DNA of 42,613 nucleotides from a virus. Lineage: Duplodnaviria; Heunggongvirae; Uroviricota; Caudoviricetes. Location of the stretch: IMG/VR virus record IMGVR_UViG_2703718839_000008. One strand, 5' to 3'. This document shows positions 1 to 42,237 of this stretch, piece by piece. A program made the position numbers and the translations under genes. Positions within the stretch are counted from its first letter, which is position 1. The number at the start of each line of letters is the position of its first letter. Below the pieces are notes generated by a model, which saw only the letters and a program-made list of their open reading frames with translations, was not told the DNA's origin and searched no databases.

Positions 1-708
1 ATGTGGGTCAATAAGTATATTGACGATTGCACTGATGAGGATTTAAACGATCGTGACTTTATTGCATCAGTTGTTGACCGGGCTATTTTTCATTTCGCGA
101 TTAATAGTATATGTAATCCTGGGGATAATAAAGATGCAATGCCCATTGAACAATGTACTTTTGATGTAGAAACTAAGAATGACCTTCCCTCCACGGTTCA
201 GCTATTTTATGAGGAATCTAAGGATAATGAACCTTTAGCGAATATACATTTTCAAGCAATAGGTTCTGGTTTTTTAACGTTTGTTAATGCCTGCCAGGAA
301 CATGATGACAACAGCTTAAAATTATTTGCTTCGCTGTTAATTTCACTTTCATATTCTAGTGCCTACGCAGATTTATCAGAAACAGTGTATATTAATGAAA
401 ATAATGAGAGCTACCTGAAAGCTCAGTTTGAAAAATTATCTCAACGTGATATGAAGAAGTACCTGGGAGAGATGAAGCGTCTGGCTGATGGGGGAGAAAT
501 GAATTTTGATGGCTATCTGGATAAGATGTCACATCTGGTGAATGAAGGAACGCTCGATCCTGATATTTTAAGCAAAATGCGAGATGCTGCACCACAATTA
601 ATTAGCTTCGCGAAGTCGTTTGACCCAACCTCAAAGGAAGAGATTAAAATACTTACAGACACTTCTAAATTAATTTATGATTTGTTCGGGGTTAAATCGG
701 AGAAATAA
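1..708 (+). CDS. Host-flank hypothetical protein, 235 aa; by size and position upstream of dusA possibly YjbM
   Basis: Full ORF starting at base 1, followed by a hairpin and T-tract; AT-rich. Identification is by context and length only, not sequence recall. Confidence 0.45.
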   Translation: MWVNKYIDDCTDEDLNDRDFIASVVDRAIFHFAINSICNPGDNKDAMPIEQCTFDVETKNDLPSTVQLFYEESKDNEPLANIHFQAIGSGFLTFVNACQEHDDNSLKLFASLLISLSYSSAYADLSETVYINENNESYLKAQFEKLSQRDMKKYLGEMKRLADGGEMNFDGYLDKMSHLVNEGTLDPDILSKMRDAAPQLISFAKSFDPTSKEEIKILTDTSKLIYDLFGVKSEK

Positions 709-778: not shown

Positions 779-1070
779 TCTATCAATGCTATTAGCAGGG
801 AGATATATCACCAGAGTTTAATGTGTGATTTTTTATTTATCGTCGAACCTGGATTGTTTATCATTGGCCTTAACAAAGTTAACGGCTAATAAGATTATTT
901 CCATCACTTCGTGAGAGCTTCATGCCTTGAGAGGATCTCAATTTTCTTTTGCAATGAGACAGGCGCTTCCTGTTGTTATGGTATAGTACCCCGCTATTGA
1001 GCCTCCTGAATAGTGATGCTGAATAACATAACCCCATGATATATCGATAAAATAATCTCTACATTTGAAA

Positions 1071-1193
1071 ATGCACGGTAATTCTGAAATGCAAAAAATC
1101 AACCAAACCAGCGCAATGCCTGAAAAAACTGACGTTCACTGGAGTGGTCGGTTTAGCGTTGCACCAATGCTCGATAGGATGTACCGTTTTTGA
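1071..1193 (+). pseudogene. dusA: Displaced original 5' end of dusA (first about 35 codons) left at the prophage junction
   Basis: Translates MHGNSEMQKINQTSAMPEKTDVHWSGRFSVAPMLD then diverges (RMYRF, stop); near-identical to the N-terminus of the intact dusA at 41200. Confidence 0.85.
1161..1176. other. attL core region (crossover within dusA codons ...APMLD)
   Basis: Host-like sequence ends at gcaccaatgctcgat; the same atgctcga core is found at 41296-41304. Confidence 0.6.
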
Positions 1194-1318
1194 AAAACAA
1201 GTAGTTATACACTTTGTGGGAGCCTATTGGGAACCCGGTGTTTTCATTTCAAGGTGTAATCCATGCCGGGCATCAGAATGAGATATAATGAGATTTTTAG
1301 TGTTCCGCTTGAGAGTCT

Positions 1319-1855
1319 ATGATGCTTACCCTAGACGAGATAGGTCAATCTGTACGTAACAATATCCAGTTGATTATTGATCATGTCGGCTTACCTCTTG
1401 CTGTTGGTCCGCTCAGTGATGATGATTACAAGATTCTGTGTGGTGGCTATGGTGAGCTTGAATGGGACTATGCGTTAAGCACCTATGGCAACTCCAGAGA
1501 AAAGTATGAGTTCTGCATAAAACTTGTTCAGCAAGGTCGGGTTCAGGGAATACCATCAGGAGCAGCAATTTGTGTTTATGGGGTTGAAGAAAACATCTTT
1601 CGTATCCATATGATCGAAAGGTTTTCTAGAGAAGATGAATCTCACCCATTGAAAGGGCGCATGGTTTTACTCACTCTTATGAGTGCTTTTATATTTTGTA
1701 AAGCTGTTGAATGTAAAGTTGTCCACATTGTAGAGCCAGTACCAGAACTGGTGCAGTATTACGAGTCTTTTGGTTTCCGCATGGAACAGTGCGGTTATGT
1801 GATGTCTGCAGTCATTGATGAGCTGCAGGATATCTTTCTTAAATTTGCTCAGTAG
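1319..1855 (+). CDS. Cargo protein, 178 aa, possible GNAT-like acyltransferase fold
   Basis: ORF just inside attL; C-terminal ...VVHIVEPVPELVQYYESFGF resembles the GNAT C-terminal motif; no confident family match from memory. Confidence 0.4.
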   Translation: MMLTLDEIGQSVRNNIQLIIDHVGLPLAVGPLSDDDYKILCGGYGELEWDYALSTYGNSREKYEFCIKLVQQGRVQGIPSGAAICVYGVEENIFRIHMIERFSREDESHPLKGRMVLLTLMSAFIFCKAVECKVVHIVEPVPELVQYYESFGFRMEQCGYVMSAVIDELQDIFLKFAQ

Positions 1856-15246: not shown

Positions 15247-16299
15247 ATGAAAAATACTGTAAAAATAAACAGTGTTGATTTAATCAACGCTGATTGCCTG
15301 CATTTTATTCAGTCCTTGCCTGATGATTCCATTGATCTGATTGTTACCGATCCGCCGTACTTCAAAGTGAAGCCCAACGGCTGGGACAATCAGTGGAAAG
15401 GGGACGAAGATTACCTGAAGTGGCTGGACTACTGTCTGGCCCAGTTCTGGCGGGTACTGAAACCAGCCGGAAGCCTTTACCTGTTCTGTGGACATCGCCT
15501 CGCATCTGATATCGAGATCATGATGCGTGAACGTTTCAACGTGCTTAACCATATCATCTGGGCGAAGCCGTCCGGACGATGGAACGGGTGTAATAAAGAA
15601 AGCCTGCGGGCATATTTCCCCGCTACAGAGCGCGTTCTGTTTGCTGAACATTACCAGGGGCCATATCGCGGCAAAAGTGACGGCTATGCGGCAAAAGAAA
15701 GGGAACTCAAACAGCACATAATGGCACCGCTGATATCGTATTTCAGGGATGCTCGTGCCGAACTGGGTATAACGGCAAAACAAATTGCCGAAGCCACAGG
15801 TAAGAAAAATATGGTTTCCCACTGGTTTGGTGCCAGTCAGTGGCAGTTGCCGAATGAGGCTGACTATCGGAAGTTACAGGCACTGTTTTCCCGTATAGCG
15901 GCAGAGAAGTTTCAGGAACAACAACTGGAACAACCACACCACCAGCTGGTGGCATCTTATGATTCACTGAATCGCAAATATTCTGAATTGCTGGATGAGT
16001 TTAAATCTCTCCGGCGCTATTTCTCCGTATCAGTCTCCGTGCCTTATACCGATGTCTGGACGCATAAGCCCGTTCAGTTCTACCCGGGTAAACATCCGTG
16101 CGAGAAACCGGCGGATATGCTCCGGCAAATAATCAATGCCAGTAGTCGACCTGGTGATCTGGTTGCTGATTTCTTTATGGGATCCGGTTCCACAATAAAA
16201 GCAGCAATGGCGCTGGGGCGTCGGGCGTTAGGTGTTGAACTTGAGTCAGAGCGGTTTAATCAGACGGTGAAAGAGGTAAGTGAACTGGTGGGGAAATAA
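15247..16299 (+). CDS. DNA methyltransferase (beta-class N6A/N4C type), orphan, in the late region
   Basis: N-terminal DPPY motif (LIVTDPPYF) and C-terminal FMGSGST AdoMet motif; no adjacent nuclease. Confidence 0.75.
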   Translation: MKNTVKINSVDLINADCLHFIQSLPDDSIDLIVTDPPYFKVKPNGWDNQWKGDEDYLKWLDYCLAQFWRVLKPAGSLYLFCGHRLASDIEIMMRERFNVLNHIIWAKPSGRWNGCNKESLRAYFPATERVLFAEHYQGPYRGKSDGYAAKERELKQHIMAPLISYFRDARAELGITAKQIAEATGKKNMVSHWFGASQWQLPNEADYRKLQALFSRIAAEKFQEQQLEQPHHQLVASYDSLNRKYSELLDEFKSLRRYFSVSVSVPYTDVWTHKPVQFYPGKHPCEKPADMLRQIINASSRPGDLVADFFMGSGSTIKAAMALGRRALGVELESERFNQTVKEVSELVGK

Positions 16300-16375
16300 T
16301 TCTGGTGGCCACGTTGCGTGGCCTTTTTATTTCCAACACAGCACCCGCAAATATCGCGAGGTGAGAGATGACGAA

Positions 16376-16711
16376 ATGCCTCATAACCCAAATACCTGGC
16401 CGGACTGGCTGGAGTTGTTTCAGAGCTGGTGGCGTGGAGACACACCGCTGGGTGCAGTGATTATGTCGATCGTTATGGCTGGTTTGCGCATCGCCTATTT
16501 TGGCGGTGGTGGTGGCTGGAAGCGAAAAACGCTCGAGATTTTGCTATGTGGCGCTCTGACGCTGACCTTTGCATCCGCTCTTGAATATGTCGGATGGCCT
16601 AAATCGCTTTCTGTTGCCATTGGTGGTGGCGTGGGGCTGATCGGTGTCGATGCTATTCGTGGGGCTGCAATGCGAGTAATCGGTAACAAATTTGGTAGCT
16701 CGAAGGAGTAA
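16376..16711 (+). CDS. Holin (lambda S-like family)
   Basis: Transmembrane helices with charged C-terminus; GAVIMSIVMAGLRIAYFGG resembles lambda S GIGAILAFAMAYLRG; directly upstream of endolysin. Start uncertain. Confidence 0.65.
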   Translation: MPHNPNTWPDWLELFQSWWRGDTPLGAVIMSIVMAGLRIAYFGGGGGWKRKTLEILLCGALTLTFASALEYVGWPKSLSVAIGGGVGLIGVDAIRGAAMRVIGNKFGSSKE

Positions 16712-16714
16712 TTT

Positions 16715-17191
16715 ATGCAGGCACTAAATTCCCAGCGTAAAGCTTTCCTGGATATGGTGGCATGGTCAGAAGGAACGGATAACGGGCGACAACCGACACG
16801 TAACCACGGTTATGATGTTATTGTTGGTGGCGAACTGTTCACTGATTACTCCGATCACCCTCGCAAACTTGTCACGCTAAACCCCAAACTCAAATCAACA
16901 GCTGCCGGACGTTACCAGCTTCTTTCACGCTGGTGGGATGCTTACCGTAAGCAGCTTGGCCTGAAAGACTTCTCTCCCAAAAGCCAGGACGCTGTTGCGC
17001 TGCAGCAGATTAAGGAACGTGGCGCTTTGCCGATGATTGATCGCGGTGATATCCGTCAGGCAATCGACCGTTGCAGCAATATCTGGGCTTCACTGCCGGG
17101 TGCTGGTTATGGCCAGTTCGAGCATAAGGCTGACAGCCTGATTGCAAAATTCAAAGAGGCTGGCGGAACGGTCAGAGAGATTGATGTATGA
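16715..17191 (+). CDS. R: Endolysin, lambda R-like lytic transglycosylase
   Basis: [51 protein letters not shown]... is near-identical to lambda R as recalled. Confidence 0.9.
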
Positions 17192-18356: not shown

Positions 18357-18713
18357 ATGAACGACCAGCAAATCGAAAAAGAAATCGTTGAGAAAGGCCA
18401 AACGGCATCGCGCGTTACGCCTCAATATATCGAAAGCATCATTCTTGAAGAGCATTTCTTTACTGCTTATGACGGCATTCGTGCTGCCAATATGGGCGTT
18501 GGCGATTCATGGACAGCGCATAAATCTACAGACCTCCTGACTTTCTGCGTACTGGTGCTGAAGAATGGCTTCACCGTCACCGGAGAGAGTGCCTGTGCAA
18601 GCCCGGAAAACTTTGATGCAGAAATTGGTCGGAAGATTGCCCGGCAAAATGCTGTAAACAAAATCTGGATGCTCGAAGGTTACTTGCTGAAGCAGAAGCT
18701 AAGCGAACAGTAG
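18357..18713 (+). CDS. Gp49-like phage protein
   Basis: ...TAHKSTDLLTFCVLVLKNGFTVTGESACASPENFDAEIGRKIARQNA... resembles the Gp49/Sf6 gp66 family commonly found upstream of terminase genes. Confidence 0.5.
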   Translation: MNDQQIEKEIVEKGQTASRVTPQYIESIILEEHFFTAYDGIRAANMGVGDSWTAHKSTDLLTFCVLVLKNGFTVTGESACASPENFDAEIGRKIARQNAVNKIWMLEGYLLKQKLSEQ

Positions 18714-36828: not shown

Positions 36829-37467
36829 ATGCATCGTATAGACACGAAAACCGCGCAGAAGGATAAGTTCGGCGCGGGTAAGAACGGTTTTACCCGTGGT
36901 AACCCCCAGACCGGCACACCTGCCACCGATCTGGATGATGACTACTTTGACATGTTGCAGGAGGAGCTTTGCAGCGTTGTGGAGGCATCCGGTGCCAGCC
37001 TGGAGAAGGGGCGGCACGACCAGCTGCTTACCGCGCTTCGTGCGCTGCTGTTAAGCCGCAAGAATCCGTTTGGTGATATCAAATCGGATGGCACGGTGAA
37101 AACGGCTCTCGAAAACCTTGGTTTGGGGGAATTGGCTCTGGCTGGCGCAACAACCGGCGCTATGTTGGTGAATGGGTATGTAGCAATTCCATTAATTATT
37201 TCTGGCGTTCGGAGACCACTTATTATCCAGTGGGGAGTGGGGCAGTTTGGGGGAAGTCTGGGGGATGATGCGGGATATTTAAACAATTTCCCTTTCGCTT
37301 TTCCGTCGGCGTGCTACGTGATGGTTGCCAGCCACGTGGGGCATACACCTTCGGGTGCCGGAATACTATCTGCTTCCGCAATCACAAAAAGCGGCTTTCG
37401 TGGTTTTTCCAGCGTAGCGACTGCCGCAAATCCTGTATCGGGCTGTTATGTTGCTATAGGAGGGTGA
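36829..37467 (+). CDS. Tail fibre protein: constant N-terminal part fused to variable C-terminal part in current orientation
   Basis: N-terminus [55 protein letters not shown] matches e14/Mu-type fibre N-termini; recombination site falls within codons ENLGLGE. Confidence 0.8.
37108..37130. repeat. Left inverted-repeat recombination site (gix/pix-like) of the invertible fibre segment
   Basis: ctcgaaaaccttggtttgggggaa is the near-inverse of 38912-38934; resembles Gin/Hin site core. Confidence 0.6.
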
Positions 37468-38468: not shown

Positions 38469-38925
38469 TATTTAGCCCTCACCAGAAAGTTAAATGCAAT
38501 ATTTCGCGGTCTGACAGCAACAAAATTCACACCATCACCCACAGAGTTACTGGTGAAATTAAATCGTGAAAATCCTGGCTGATTTCCGGCGATGCCATCA
38601 TGAAAGTTAATTGCGTGTCCCGCACCTCCGCCTATATTCCCGGCAAACTGAGAAAAGTTTGTAGCTTCCTGCCAGCTTAATAATTCGCGACCACCATCGG
38701 CACCTCGCCCGTCATCCCAGATACGAATGAAATCACCGCGGGCTTCAGGTAATACCAGTGAAGGAAACACTTTCGCCAGCACAGGGTAATCAGAGGCAGA
38801 AAATTTCGCCCCGTTGAACTTCAAAAACACCATACTGGACCAGCTGTCGATTACAGTATTTGGCATTGCAGCGGACGGCCAGAAGAACGGAACGCCAATA
38901 GCTGGAGCACCTTCTCCCAAACCAA
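38468..38925 (-). CDS. Alternative variable tail-fibre C-terminal segment, start-less, expressed only after inversion
   Basis: Reads from the right recombination site as LGLGEGAPAIG..., joining in frame to ...ENLGLGE; no own start codon. Confidence 0.65.
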
Positions 38926-38934
38926 CCTTTCAAA
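38912..38934. repeat. Right inverted-repeat recombination site of the invertible segment
   Basis: ttctcccaaaccaacctttcaaa; reverse complement matches the left site with few mismatches. Confidence 0.6.
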
Positions 38935-38996: not shown

Positions 38997-39560
38997 ATGA
39001 TTTACGGGTATGTTCGTGTATCAACAAATCATCAGGATACAGAGTTGCAACGTCTTGCACTTGAGTCAGCTGGCTGTGAGCGAATTTATGAAGAATATGC
39101 CAGTGGCAGAACAGCTAATCGCCCTGTGTTAAAGGAATTAATTACGGTGATGAAAAGTGGAGATGAGTTGATTGTCTGGAAGTTAGATCGGATAGGGAGA
39201 AATGTGCTGCATGCGCTATTGATGTTTCAAAATCTGCACGAAAAAGGTGTTAATTTTCGGAGTATTACAGATGGCGTAGACCTGAAAACAGCAAGTGGTC
39301 GCTATAATTTCCGTAATATTCTTTCTGCTGCGCAGTATGAATCTGATTTGAATAGCGAGCGAACTTTAGCTGGTTTGGCTATTGCCAGATCCAAAGGCCG
39401 GATTGGTGGGCGTAGACCGAAGTTTAGCGACGAGCAGTGGCAACAGATGGGAGCGATCATAGCGGCAGGGAAATCACGGCGTTATGTTGCACGTATCTAT
39501 AACGTTGGGCTATCAACCCTATATAAACGATTTCCTGTTACTGGCATTCAAACGAAATAA
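38997..39560 (+). CDS. pin: Serine DNA invertase (Pin/Gin/Hin family)
   Basis: MIYGYVRVSTNHQDTELQ... catalytic Ser, resolvase domain and C-terminal HTH; adjacent to the invertible segment; AGGAGA RBS. Confidence 0.85.
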   Translation: MIYGYVRVSTNHQDTELQRLALESAGCERIYEEYASGRTANRPVLKELITVMKSGDELIVWKLDRIGRNVLHALLMFQNLHEKGVNFRSITDGVDLKTASGRYNFRNILSAAQYESDLNSERTLAGLAIARSKGRIGGRRPKFSDEQWQQMGAIIAAGKSRRYVARIYNVGLSTLYKRFPVTGIQTK

Positions 39561-39703
39561 TTTAAAAGCAATTTAAAGAGTTATTTGTCTAATGTTGGAA
39601 GCCGCAGCCACGTCGTATGCAAGAACGTGCTGCGGCTGGCTGGCGAACTTTCGATAGTGCGAGTATTGAATGATTTCCAGCCGTTACCGATTTTACGTGT
39701 TAA

Positions 39704-39952
39704 TTAGTGAACAAACCACTCGTCAGCAGATTCCCAGGTATCTTTCAGAGTCTCCTGAACAAAAGTTTTTGCAGAATCCTTATCTGCGGTGCGTGTAACA
39801 GAAAGGCCATCGTTGCTGGTGGCTTTTACGATCACCTCTACATCGTCATAACGTTTACTGATGCGTCGGGTTAATTCTTCCTTTAACGCATCCACAGCAC
39901 CGGTTGGCATTTTAGTCATTTTTTCTTTGGCTATGCAGATTTCAATACGCAT
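39704..39952 (-). CDS. DinI-like protein
   Basis: [11 protein letters not shown]...LKEELTRRI...[16 protein letters not shown] matches the DinI-family pattern; two LexA boxes upstream. Confidence 0.7.
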
Positions 39953-39965
39953 AAAAGTCCCTCTA

Positions 39966-39985
39966 TACTGTGTTTGTATACAGTA
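39966..39985. promoter_or_regulatory. LexA (SOS) box 1
   Basis: TACTGTGTTTGTATACAGTA, a perfect CTGT-N8-ACAG palindrome. Confidence 0.75.
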
Positions 39986-39993
39986 TTATTTTT

Positions 39994-40013
39994 AACTGTA
40001 TAGATAAACAGTG
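39994..40013. promoter_or_regulatory. LexA (SOS) box 2
   Basis: AACTGTATAGATAAACAGTG, CTGT-N8-ACAG. Confidence 0.7.
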
Positions 40014-41111
40014 TCAAGAGGCCTTATTTCTGCTCCTTTGGAGCTCTTCAAAACGATTATGTAAAGATTTCGGATACAGTTCGGTATATACCTGCCATAG
40101 CACGTTTAATGAACGATGCCCTGTAACCTGGGCGACTTCCTCAATACTAAAACCAGCCTCAAATAAGCGACTTGCCCCTTCTCTACGCAAATCATGGTAT
40201 CGCAGATCTTTAATACCTAATTTGCTTCTTACCCTCTGGAATCCCGCAGTAACAGAAGTGCTGTTATATGGAAAAATGAATTCTGATTTTTTGGGTTGTC
40301 GTTGGACGATATCCCAGGCTTCCCCAAGCAAGGCTACTTTCATATGGTTGCCTTCCTTTTTACGTGGATCTTTCCTGTCTCTTACGAGTATGGATTTTTG
40401 TTCCTGATCGAGATCCTCCCATCGTAATCGGCATACTTCACCGATTCGCATACATGACCACACAGAAAATTTGAGGATATCAACGAACGGAATTTTTGAG
40501 CATTTATGTGTAGATCGTTGTTGAAGACCTTCAATGAGCATGTCCAGTTCATCAGATGCCGGTCTACGATTACGACGATTTGATTTACCAATTAAACCAA
40601 GTTTAAGTAGATATGGACGAGCGGCTTTTGCTGGGTTTGATGTGTAATTAATTCCATATACAGGTTTGGCAGCATCCAGAACACTGCCAAGATAACTAAC
40701 ATCGTGGCTAACTGTAGCTGGACCTGCACCAGCGTTGTTTCTTAGCCTGCAATGTTCAATTACGTCATTTTCTGTCAGTTCAGATAGTTTGAGCGCGGAG
40801 ACGTCACTATCCATAAGCAGTTCCAGCACATATCTTTTAGTACGGCCTGCTTTACCTCCGGCATTTGGGTCATTTAAATATTTGTGTAGTAAGTCACGGA
40901 CTGTAAGTCCGTCAACTGCATTTGATGATGGAATGCCATATAGATCTAATTCCATCACTTTCTGTGTGCCCCATGTTTTGGCATGAGCATGTTTAGGGAA
41001 TGTTTTACTTTCCCTGTAAGTGATAACACCTTTTTCTTTGATAATCACATTACAGCGATAGCGTGGTGTGCCATCGGATTTTAGTCGTTTCTCTATGTTA
41101 TAGTATGCCAT
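40014..41111 (-). CDS. int: Tyrosine integrase (dusA-targeting type)
   Basis: 365 aa with C-terminal tyrosine recombinase catalytic region (R..H..R..Y); adjacent to attR within dusA. Confidence 0.85.
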   Translation of the reverse strand: MAYYNIEKRLKSDGTPRYRCNVIIKEKGVITYRESKTFPKHAHAKTWGTQKVMELDLYGIPSSNAVDGLTVRDLLHKYLNDPNAGGKAGRTKRYVLELLMDSDVSALKLSELTENDVIEHCRLRNNAGAGPATVSHDVSYLGSVLDAAKPVYGINYTSNPAKAARPYLLKLGLIGKSNRRNRRPASDELDMLIEGLQQRSTHKCSKIPFVDILKFSVWSCMRIGEVCRLRWEDLDQEQKSILVRDRKDPRKKEGNHMKVALLGEAWDIVQRQPKKSEFIFPYNSTSVTAGFQRVRSKLGIKDLRYHDLRREGASRLFEAGFSIEEVAQVTGHRSLNVLWQVYTELYPKSLHNRFEELQRSRNKAS

Positions 41112-41199
41112 TACACGACCTCGTTATTTCGGGTTCCCATAAAACGTGGGAACCTGTGCGGGAACCTAACGCGAGAAAAATAGCCTGAAATGTTCAAAA

Positions 41200-42237
41200 A
41201 TGCACGATAATCATGAAACACAAAAAATTAATCAAACCAGCGTGATGCCTGAAAAAACTGGTGTTTACTGGAATTCTCGGTTTAGCATTGCTCCTATGCT
41301 CGACTGGACGGACAGACATTGCCGCTATTTCTTGCGTCTGCTTTCCCGCAATACGTTGCTGTATACCGAAATGGTGACCACAGGGGCGATTATTCACGGT
41401 AAAGGTGATTATCTGGCGTACAGTGAAGAAGAACATCCGGTAGCGTTGCAACTGGGCGGTAGCGATCCGGCGGCGCTGGCGCAGTGTGCAAAGCTGGCAG
41501 AAGCGCGCGGATATGATGAGATCAACCTGAATGTCGGCTGCCCGTCTGACCGGGTGCAGAACGGCATGTTTGGTGCGTGTCTGATGGGTAATGCGCAGCT
41601 GGTTGCCGACTGCGTGAAAGCGATGCGCGATGTGGTGTCGATTCCGGTGACGGTGAAAACGCGTATTGGCATCGACGACCAGGACAGCTATGAATTTCTC
41701 TGCGATTTCATCAATACCGTTTCCGGCAAAGGCGAGTGTGAGATGTTCATCATCCACGCACGTAAAGCCTGGCTTTCGGGGTTAAGCCCGAAAGAAAACC
41801 GTGAAATCCCGCCGCTCGATTATCCGCGTGTGTATCAACTGAAGCGTGACTTTCCGCATCTGACAATGTCGATTAACGGTGGTATCAAGTCGCTGGAAGA
41901 GGCCAAAGCACACCTGCAACATATGGATGGCGTGATGGTCGGGCGCGAGGCGTATCAGAATCCGGGTATTCTGGCGGCGGTAGACCGGGAGATCTTTGGT
42001 TCCTCGGATACCGATGCCGATCCGGTGGCGGTAGTGCGCGCCATGTATCCGTACATTGAGCGTGAACTCAGCCAGGGGACGTATCTCGGCCATATTACCC
42101 GGCATATGTTGGGCTTGTTCCAGGGTATTCCTGGCGCGCGGCAGTGGCGGCGTTATTTAAGTGAAAATGCCCATAAAGCGGGTGCAGACATTAATGTGCT
42201 GGAACACGCGCTCAAACTGGTGGCGGATAAGCGTTAA
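41200..42237 (+). CDS. dusA: tRNA-dihydrouridine synthase A, intact, with phage-supplied 5' end
   Basis: 345 aa; [63 protein letters not shown]... Dus-family TIM barrel. Confidence 0.9.
41296..41304. other. attR core within the reconstituted dusA 5' end
   Basis: atgctcgac shared with the left junction; upstream differs at several codons from the displaced host 5' end. Confidence 0.55.

Follow-up and report, generated by a model that had tools for sequence, protein, structure and literature searches.

The window analyzed here is a stretch of 42,613 nucleotides from an Escherichia coli chromosome (IMG/VR virus record IMGVR_UViG_2703718839_000008), in which yjbM (DUF2713), about 40 kb of further DNA, dusA and pspG follow one another. 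With a probability of roughly 93%, we regard its segments 1071-1193 and 41200-41303 as the left and right attachment sites (attL and attR) of a temperate phage, integrated by a tyrosine recombinase at codons 33-35 of the tRNA-dihydrouridine synthase gene dusA. A prophage in dusA that provides a replacement start is well-documented, ordinary behaviour of dusA-specific integrases, and the whole of this reading, including the hypothesis that dusA may be expressed differently in lysogen and non-lysogen, is already in print (PMC4482086, PMC6328086, PMC8409611).

Attachment sites at the two ends of the prophage

The features that define the two junctions are the following.

1-708, plus strand: yjbM, the C-terminal fragment of a frameshifted DUF2713 gene (Pfam: PF10897, E 1.5e-167), annotated in K-12 and strain 873.10 by the Prokaryotic Genome Annotation Pipeline (PGAP)
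1071-1193, plus strand: remnant open reading frame (ORF) of 40 codons from ATG to TGA, MHGNSEMQ...APMLD and then RMYRF and the stop
1071-1174, plus strand: displaced chromosomal dusA 5' end, codons 1-34 and two bases of codon 35; half of attL derived from the bacterial site attB
1167-1174, plus strand: core ATGCTCGA of attL, in dusA codons Met33-Leu34-Asp35
1175-41303: prophage (40,129 bp) whose early genes are lambdoid and whose morphogenesis module specifies a contractile tail
41200-41303, plus strand: phage-supplied replacement dusA 5' end, codons 1-35; half of attR derived from the phage site attP
41296-41303, plus strand: core ATGCTCGA of attR; the match to free phages ends at 41303
41200-42237, plus strand: intact chimeric dusA, 345 aa (Pfam Dus, E 8e-105; NCBIfam DusA equivalog, 560 bits)

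In K-12-type E. coli, the left chromosomal flank of dusA is yjbM. The first 104 nt of K-12 dusA align with window positions 1071-1174 at 100% identity, so that this segment proved to be derived from dusA when it was compared with an uninterrupted reference. A megablast search with positions 600-1400 matched 4,380 of 5,426 complete E. coli genomes, and in the uninterrupted genomes (thousands, K-12 included) the match stops exactly at 1174. The last 19 nt of the remnant ORF (1175-1193), i.e. the five codons RMYRF and the stop, are phage DNA. The 40-codon dusA remnant described in the sequence-only reading is thus real, but only 1071-1174 is dusA. In strain 873.10, PGAP annotates an identical remnant as a pseudogene (partial tRNA-dihydrouridine synthase); the exact left junction of the window occurs in 351 genomes of the same complete E. 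coli set.

At the right junction, residues 1-35 of the chimeric DusA are phage-coded and the remainder is chromosomal; downstream of the core, dusA is identical to that of K-12 over the aligned stretch (to 41388). The likeness of the two dusA 5' ends exceeds chance by far. Over the first 104 nt, 86 positions are identical (83%), as are 26 of 35 amino acids (MHDNHETQ... versus MHGNSEMQ...), which agrees with the related but non-identical N-terminus that had been read from the letters of the intact gene; the blastn alignment spans 152 nt, comprising the replaced end, the core and the flank beyond (E 3e-51). The chimera carries nine substitutions (G3D, S5H, M7T, A15V, D21G, H23Y, S25N, G26S and V30I), all confined to the variable N-terminus except for the conservative V30I. 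The match to the NCBIfam DusA model begins at residue 19, and the beta-1 strand RFS(I/V)APMLD is intact. In phage SKA5, the phage's own dusA 5' end is annotated as 'tRNA-dihydrouridine'.

The 8-bp core ATGCTCGA is identical in attB, attP, attL and attR, closes both dusA 5' copies, and sits inside the imperfect repeat GCWCCWATGCTCGAYWGGAYGKAC; a third copy at 18669 was set aside as a chance match. In a four-way alignment, attL consists of the left part of attB and the right part of attP, and attR of the left part of attP and the right part of attB. The arms have been exchanged reciprocally at the 8 bp of the core, as is characteristic of conservative site-specific recombination. The attB sequence also matches the Citrobacter rodentium attB string printed in the study of phage 1720a-02 at 17 of 19 bases, the whole core included, and the window core contains the 7-base core reported for that phage (PMC6328086).

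The unrecombined phage site is found in free phages. The region 39600-41320 (dinI, int, spacer and dusA 5' end) is 96-98% identical to ten phage records, which include mEp460, SKA5, Lys8385Vzw, mEp460_4F5, three PhiR phages, an Stx2k phage and 1720a-02, and in all ten the match ends at window 41301-41305, that is, at the core. Past the core of mEp460 and SKA5, the left arm of the window follows with its 178-aa ORF, 57-aa ORF and PrtN-like gene; the order in these virions is hence int, dusA 5' mimic, core and left arm, and the virion genomes Lys8385Vzw and mEp460_4F5 likewise contain int and the dusA mimic followed by the left arm. The K-12 comparison, the attP of free phages and the core shared by both junctions bear out what had been proposed from the sequence, namely that the integrase inserts in dusA and that phage codons restore the ORF.

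According to this model, the integrase would recombine attP, which lies inside the dusA 5' mimic in the order int, 88-bp spacer, 35 dusA-like codons, ATGCTCGA and P' arm, with attB at dusA codons 33-35, the conserved Met-Leu-Asp of the beta-1 strand RFS(V/I)APMLD. Crossover at the core would shift the chromosomal promoter and the first 35 codons 40 kb away, where translation would stop after five phage codons; the 35 codons of the phage would fuse in frame to the rest of dusA and yield a full-length DusA. Excision by Int and a PrtN-like factor (2273-2554) would restore the previous dusA.

The arrangement is frequent. The module composed of the int 5' end, the spacer and the dusA mimic (40950-41303) is present, at a threshold of at least 80% coverage, in 741 of the 5,426 complete E. 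coli genomes, and in all listed rows of module matches PGAP calls the fused gene dusA.

Integrase, arm repeats and promoter of the restored dusA

The following features are relevant to recombination and to the transcription of dusA.

40014-41111, minus strand: dusA-specific tyrosine integrase (Int), 365 aa (Pfam: PF00589 Phage_integrase, E 1e-20)
2273-2554 (longest ORF to 2581), minus strand: PrtN-like protein, probable recombination directionality factor (RdfN-type excisionase; Pfam: PF11112, E 4e-23)
1218-1235, plus strand: P' arm repeats GGGAGCC (1218-1224) and GGGAACC (1229-1235), candidate arm-type Int sites
41132-41166, plus strand: P arm repeats GGTTCCC (inverted, 41132-41138), GGGAACC (41148-41154) and GGGAACC (41160-41166), candidate Int sites
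41096-41104, plus strand: TGTTATAGT, extended -10-like, overlapping int codons 3-5 on the opposite strand
979-987, plus strand: TGGTATAGT, extended -10-like; the displaced dusA start lies 84 nt downstream

Int possesses the box motifs RIGE at 222, HDLRR at 306, GHRS at 331 and VYTELY at 341, which hold the expected catalytic Arg, His-x-x-Arg, His and Tyr, and it shares 98% amino acid identity with the Int of mEp460. The int start (41111, minus strand) and the dusA start (41200, plus strand) are separated by a spacer of 88 bp, and int is transcribed away from dusA. With a related tyrosine recombinase and an int gene adjoining the dusA 5' end, the element is a member of the dusA-associated integrase (DAI) elements. 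A scan of viral contigs with Int returned almost only copies of 98-100% identity. The PrtN-like gene, annotated as an excisionase in mEp460, sits on the arm opposite int. A DinI-like gene (39704-39952, minus strand; Pfam, E 1e-19) lies directly downstream of int; since dinI is common to many Shiga toxin (Stx) phages with other integrases, the dinI segment travels apart from the int-att module.

The repeats on both arms are probably binding sites of Int. GGGAACC has ten exact matches in 42.6 kb, as compared to 5.1 expected, which is no enrichment over the whole window, and the motif is notable only for its local clusters at the att arms; three of the matches fall in a single stretch of 35 bp in the int-dusA spacer. 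An element of Pluralibacter, whose Int is 70% identical, has the same layout of repeats, but the motif has become GGTACACC / GGTGTCC / GGTGTAC. The repeats therefore change together with the integrase, in which they resemble arm-type Int sites.

Because 40 kb of phage DNA now lie upstream of dusA, its promoter must be phage-supplied. Judging from its conservation, the likeliest candidate is TGTTATAGT: all element-type loci examined have TGNTATA(G/A)T at a distance of 198-203 nt on the upstream side of the core, and one of these loci (L053) carries the extended -10 although the motif there does not encode the start of Int. Transcription would then start at TGTTATAGT, and the spacer with its GGGAACC repeats would form the 5' untranslated region (UTR). 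The promoter that the sequence-only reading had put between int and dusA is thus retained as phage-supplied but not at that site, as the best candidate overlaps the start codons of int.

Several results weigh against this assignment. A scan of 40900-41500 for sigma-70 consensus promoters and terminators yielded none at the threshold of the scanner, and a relaxed hexamer scan gave only weak candidates, the best -10 lying inside the ORF, and nothing convincing in the 88-bp spacer; after both scans, a classical promoter within the spacer was dropped. Neither of the two candidate dusA starts (Met1 and Met16) has an obvious Shine-Dalgarno sequence. Moreover, the other strand of TGTTATAGT encodes Tyr-Tyr-Asn of Int, and the conservation of the motif may reflect this coding function.

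Comparable motifs precede dusA where the phage is absent. In short-type loci, i.e. those encoding the short DusA N-terminus described below, the motif TGCTATAGTAGCGCCCC (an extended -10 with a GC-rich discriminator) lies 97-105 nt upstream of the core in many genera (L005-L085); it is identical in most of these loci and differs by 1-4 bases in the others, and it is probably their dusA promoter. The discriminator is similar to those of stringently controlled promoters. The motif TGGTATAGT of the window resembles the TGCTATAGTAGCGCCCC of about 70 Enterobacteriaceae species and is a candidate promoter of the K-12-type ('type B') dusA, which would now drive the remnant only. We predict that dusA transcripts start about 7 nt downstream of 41104 in the lysogen, of 987 in a cured strain, and of the TGCTATAGT motif in short-type strains. 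With a likely promoter on the int start and a 5' UTR made up of probable Int arm sites, occupancy by Int could couple the expression of dusA to the state of the prophage.

Origin of the K-12-type dusA start

We gathered dusA loci from 80 Enterobacteriaceae species. Nearly all of them encode a short DusA N-terminus, with no integrase nearby. This short type includes E. albertii, E. whittamii, Escherichia sp. E1V33, divergent "E. coli" and the cryptic Escherichia clades; in the Escherichia species, zur is located directly upstream of dusA, and in RM14723 (L085) the DusA of 331 aa begins with MPAESHTVYPAYRFS. E. coli itself is dimorphic at zur-dusA: 1,123 of the 5,426 complete genomes (at least 80% of the query covered) have the short-type arrangement with a dusA of 331 codons by zur, and the rest have 345 codons together with a yjbL/yjbM segment.

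Based on these comparisons, we consider it moderately probable that the dusA start of K-12 and of about 80% of E. coli is itself a fossil of an earlier dusA-specific element, in which case the window would record two successive replacements. The ancestral state would have been zur, a 155-bp spacer with TGCTATAGTAGCGCCCC, and a DusA of 331 aa starting with MPAESHTVYPAYRFS. After the first integration, the integrase and attL would have been deleted, and the gene start and promoter of the element would have become fixed in the chromosome.

Relative to the short type, a segment of 1,686 bp in the K-12-type locus (L001, 374-2059), which the window also has, replaces 133 bp with the ancestral promoter and first codons; it is composed of yjbL/yjbM, a further 362 bp and the long 5' end of 35 codons, and has a G+C content of 27-42% between flanks of 50-60%. 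On the right, the segment ends at the integrase core. Over the 26 nt that precede the core, the two types differ by 15 mismatches, which change nearly every codon (including Ser TCG to AGC); the core contains one mismatch, and the 900 nt downstream contain 32, the first at +108. The binomial probability of this contrast is about 1e-15. Furthermore, the long 5' end of the K-12 type is 78-88% identical to the dusA mimics beside integrases in the phage of the window and in elements of Kosakonia and Phytobacter, whose Int is 82.5% identical.

Both steps that such a fossil presupposes are seen elsewhere. In 20 E. coli genomes, the left arm of the window's phage family is joined to a short-type dusA remnant, and in PMV-1, the one of the 20 that was checked, the opposite end of the prophage carries int and a dusA of 345 aa. 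Integration is hence independent of the sequence that is displaced, and lysogens of the PMV-1 type show step one. Step two is shown by Silvania hatchlandensis (L065, 1850-2105), where int is cut down to its first 20 codons (MAYYNIVNSPHTAGTLIYRC, with a stop at codon 32).

This Silvania locus retains the arm repeats GGTGTCC/GGTGTAC and a long dusA 5' end; upstream of it lie two small genes that resemble the HigB/HigA toxin-antitoxin by eye (no family search). In Superficieibacter sp. (L037, 1286-1850), a pair of genes resembling DinJ/YafQ, likewise by eye and with no family search, stands between zur and a long-type dusA in the absence of an integrase; this cassette may be another relic island.

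Evidence against a fossil comes from the DNA upstream of the K-12-type start. In the 362 bp upstream of dusA, tblastn detected no int remnant better than E 0.06, and no old attL, i.e. no leftover of a short-type 5' end, is present in the zur-yjbL interval of K-12 or at other long-type loci that lack int. The upstream similarity between the K-12 type and the elements fades just before the ATG. Comparison of the K-12-type 5' UTR with element spacers reveals no significant similarity (p 0.04-0.98), a result that is uninformative given that diverged elements fail against each other too; local alignment of the 5' UTRs leaves the TATGNTATAGTA motif as the sole shared item. In addition, yjbLM (DUF2713) has no phage matches and is an ORFan of E. 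coli only. Finally, the direction of transfer could be obscured if the two direct repeats recombine homologously. In the literature searched, we found no statement of a fossil origin, and Durand et al. treat the K-12 dusA end as native (PMC8409611).

As to DUF2713 itself, yjbL and yjbM (window 1-708; L001 624-1609) form a single gene of about 328-338 aa, which a frameshift interrupts in K-12 and in the strain of the window. A role of YjbM as mobile cargo was rejected: besides the lack of phage matches, its "plasmid" matches are mostly 0.66-4.8 Mb in size and apparently mis-filed chromosomes, although one 17-kb plasmid of Klebsiella oxytoca also matched. The 151 homologues in the database are at least 77% identical, with at least 83% for the entries listed; those with a named source come from E. 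coli, save one partial sequence labelled Klebsiella pneumoniae.

The competing account reverses the direction: the phage lineage would have copied its dusA 5' end from K-12-type E. coli, or would keep exchanging it with them, and the displaced end would be native to the host. It would explain why both 5' copies are 104 nt long, in frame and 83% identical; as direct repeats that flank the prophage, they could in principle be exchanged by RecA. The lack of significant similarity between K-12-type upstream DNA and element spacers, the missing int remnant, and the fact that DUF2713 was not found in phages fit this account as well. We nevertheless judge it unlikely. The outgroups (E. albertii, the cryptic clades, about 70 species and 1,123 E. 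coli) carry a short, unrelated 5' end by zur, which fixes the polarity, and a capture from host to phage does not predict that the replacement in the K-12 type has its right boundary at the crossover core (P ~1e-15). In addition, long-type 5' ends accompany diverged integrases (63-82% identity) in other genera, and the Silvania locus with its 20-codon int stub is an undoubted fossil.

Much less probable still is that the prophage simply inactivates dusA, a non-essential gene in E. coli, and that the ORF at 41200 is an accidental in-frame fusion which is not expressed. As this explanation would have it, the DNA upstream of 41200 yielded neither a consensus promoter nor a Shine-Dalgarno sequence. 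An accident, however, would hardly keep the mimic of 35 codons open and in frame in diverged elements of five genera, in which RFS(I/V)APMLD is preserved while the DNA is only 59-86% identical; the extended -10 conserved at a fixed distance and the presence of the module in 741 genomes also argue against it. In related cases, dusA is expressed after integration of another dusA-specific element in E. coli (PMC8409611), and the prophage raised its transcription in Shewanella (PMC10845958). A local duplication or an assembly artefact, with no site-specific recombination at all, would account for the existence of two similar segments and nothing further, and is refuted by copies that lie 40 kb apart around a complete phage, by the occurrence of one copy beside int in free phage genomes, and by the same junctions in hundreds of independent complete genomes.

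If the K-12-type start is indeed a fossil, the "wild-type" DusA N-terminus and promoter of E. coli studies have their origin in a mobile element, the "native" control in published fusion assays is likewise derived from one, and E. coli is naturally dimorphic in the length of DusA (331 versus 345 codons). This would be a modest evolutionary point.

Prophage body and relation to known systems

The prophage looks like an intact temperate phage. Nine key proteins with PHROGs matches (CI-like repressor, O-like replication protein, endolysin, terminase, portal, capsid, sheath, tape measure and baseplate) cover lysogeny, replication, lysis, packaging, head and tail. The first 24 kb are 98.6% identical, over 85% of their length, to the isolated phage vB_EcoM-720R4; SKA5, mEp460 and SfV also match. 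One further gene stands close to attL:

1319-1855, plus strand: ORF of 178 aa in a cargo or 'moron' position (PHROG 4350, function unknown, E 2e-103; no Pfam match)

An ORF of 57 aa (2052-2225) follows between attL and the PrtN-like gene, with a stem-loop and T-run recognized by eye at about 2238-2270. Both ORFs are kept at the cargo position in mEp460 and in the PMV-1 prophage; in SKA5, the 57-aa ORF is present as well, and ORFs of different size stand in for the 178-aa one. At the other end of the prophage, inverted repeats of 31 nt (37113-37143 and 38900-38930; 74% complementary, containing CCAAACC) bound a segment of 1.8 kb with tail-fibre and assembly ORFs in opposite orientations, and a serine invertase of the Hin/Gin type (38997-39560; Pfam Resolvase and HTH_7) adjoins it. 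The segment has the appearance of an invertible switch of host range.

The dusA prophage of PMV-1 (L166) combines the same int/att module with a lambda-like siphovirus backbone. Downstream of its Q gene (15738-16912), it contains a gene for the B subunit of an AB5 toxin and one for a scabin-related ADP-ribosyltransferase. Both of its junction cores (1707-1714 and 42541-48) read ATGCTTGA, the variant of the short-type host, in place of the ATGCTCGA of the window; either the differing position lies inside or beside the exchanged overlap, or the attP of the PMV-1 phage is different.

The window adds one more case to the catalogued dusA prophages. For annotation, it follows that the 40-codon ORF is a junction remnant and that about 14% of complete E. 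coli genomes have a phage-coded dusA start.

Insertion into a protein-coding gene that stays functional by means of a substitute end is known from other elements as well, namely the integrative and conjugative element SXT at prfC and phage 21 and e14 at icd. The repair of icd concerns its 3' end; in prfC, as in dusA, it is the 5' end that is restored, and a new promoter comes with it. Neither the integrases nor the target genes of SXT, phage 21 and e14 are related to those of the window.

Within the DAI elements, the resemblance is closer. Farrugia et al. (2015) defined dusA-associated integrases in more than 200 genomes, the Int of mEp460 among them. In their description, a new 5' end is substituted and the former one marks where the island ends, promoters are proposed, the beta-1 strand is kept, and the att repeats of 21 bp are semi-conserved; a PrtN-like gene is frequent in dusA islands (64%), yet not universal (PMC4482086). 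The islands of Acinetobacter baumannii D1279779 and Pseudomonas protegens Pf-5 belong to the same integrase family and target the dusA 5' end; they supply a new 5' end while the old one marks the far boundary, their att sites are semi-conserved, and a prtN homologue is frequent (PMC4482086). Unlike the window, they are found in other genera and have distant integrases and non-phage or other phage cargo. Their excision was detected by polymerase chain reaction, whereas that of the window's phage is deduced from attP in virion genomes.

IMEVchUSA3, an SGI1-like dusA-specific element, uses the same core in E. coli K-12 dusA and provides a replacement N-terminus of 35 residues and a new promoter; dusA is expressed after integration, although at a lower level, and the PrtN-like RdfN is required for excision (Durand et al. 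2021; PMC8409611). It differs from the phage of the window in being a mobilizable island under the control of AcaCD of IncC plasmids. In Shewanella, dusA transcription is higher with the prophage than without (PMC10845958).

The nearest relatives are mEp460 (NC_019716) and Phi1720a-02/Phi-stx2dact (KF030445), along with the dusA prophages of E. coli in the catalogue of Farrugia et al. (2015). Balasubramanian et al. (2019) reported that Phi1720a-02 inserts 100 bp into dusA, that an in-frame "Phi-dusA'" results, that the core comprises 7 bases, and that attP is regenerated in vivo, in mice (PMC6328086). Both phages are 97% identical to the window in the DNA of int-dinI-attP and 98% in the Int protein; the dusA mimic and the core also agree, as do the PrtN-like gene and the 178-aa ORF on the other arm. 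Elsewhere, the genome is mosaic: the window, which lacks stx, has a contractile tail and a tail-fibre segment that is invertible, whereas the tails of mEp460 and 1720a-02 are lambda-like.

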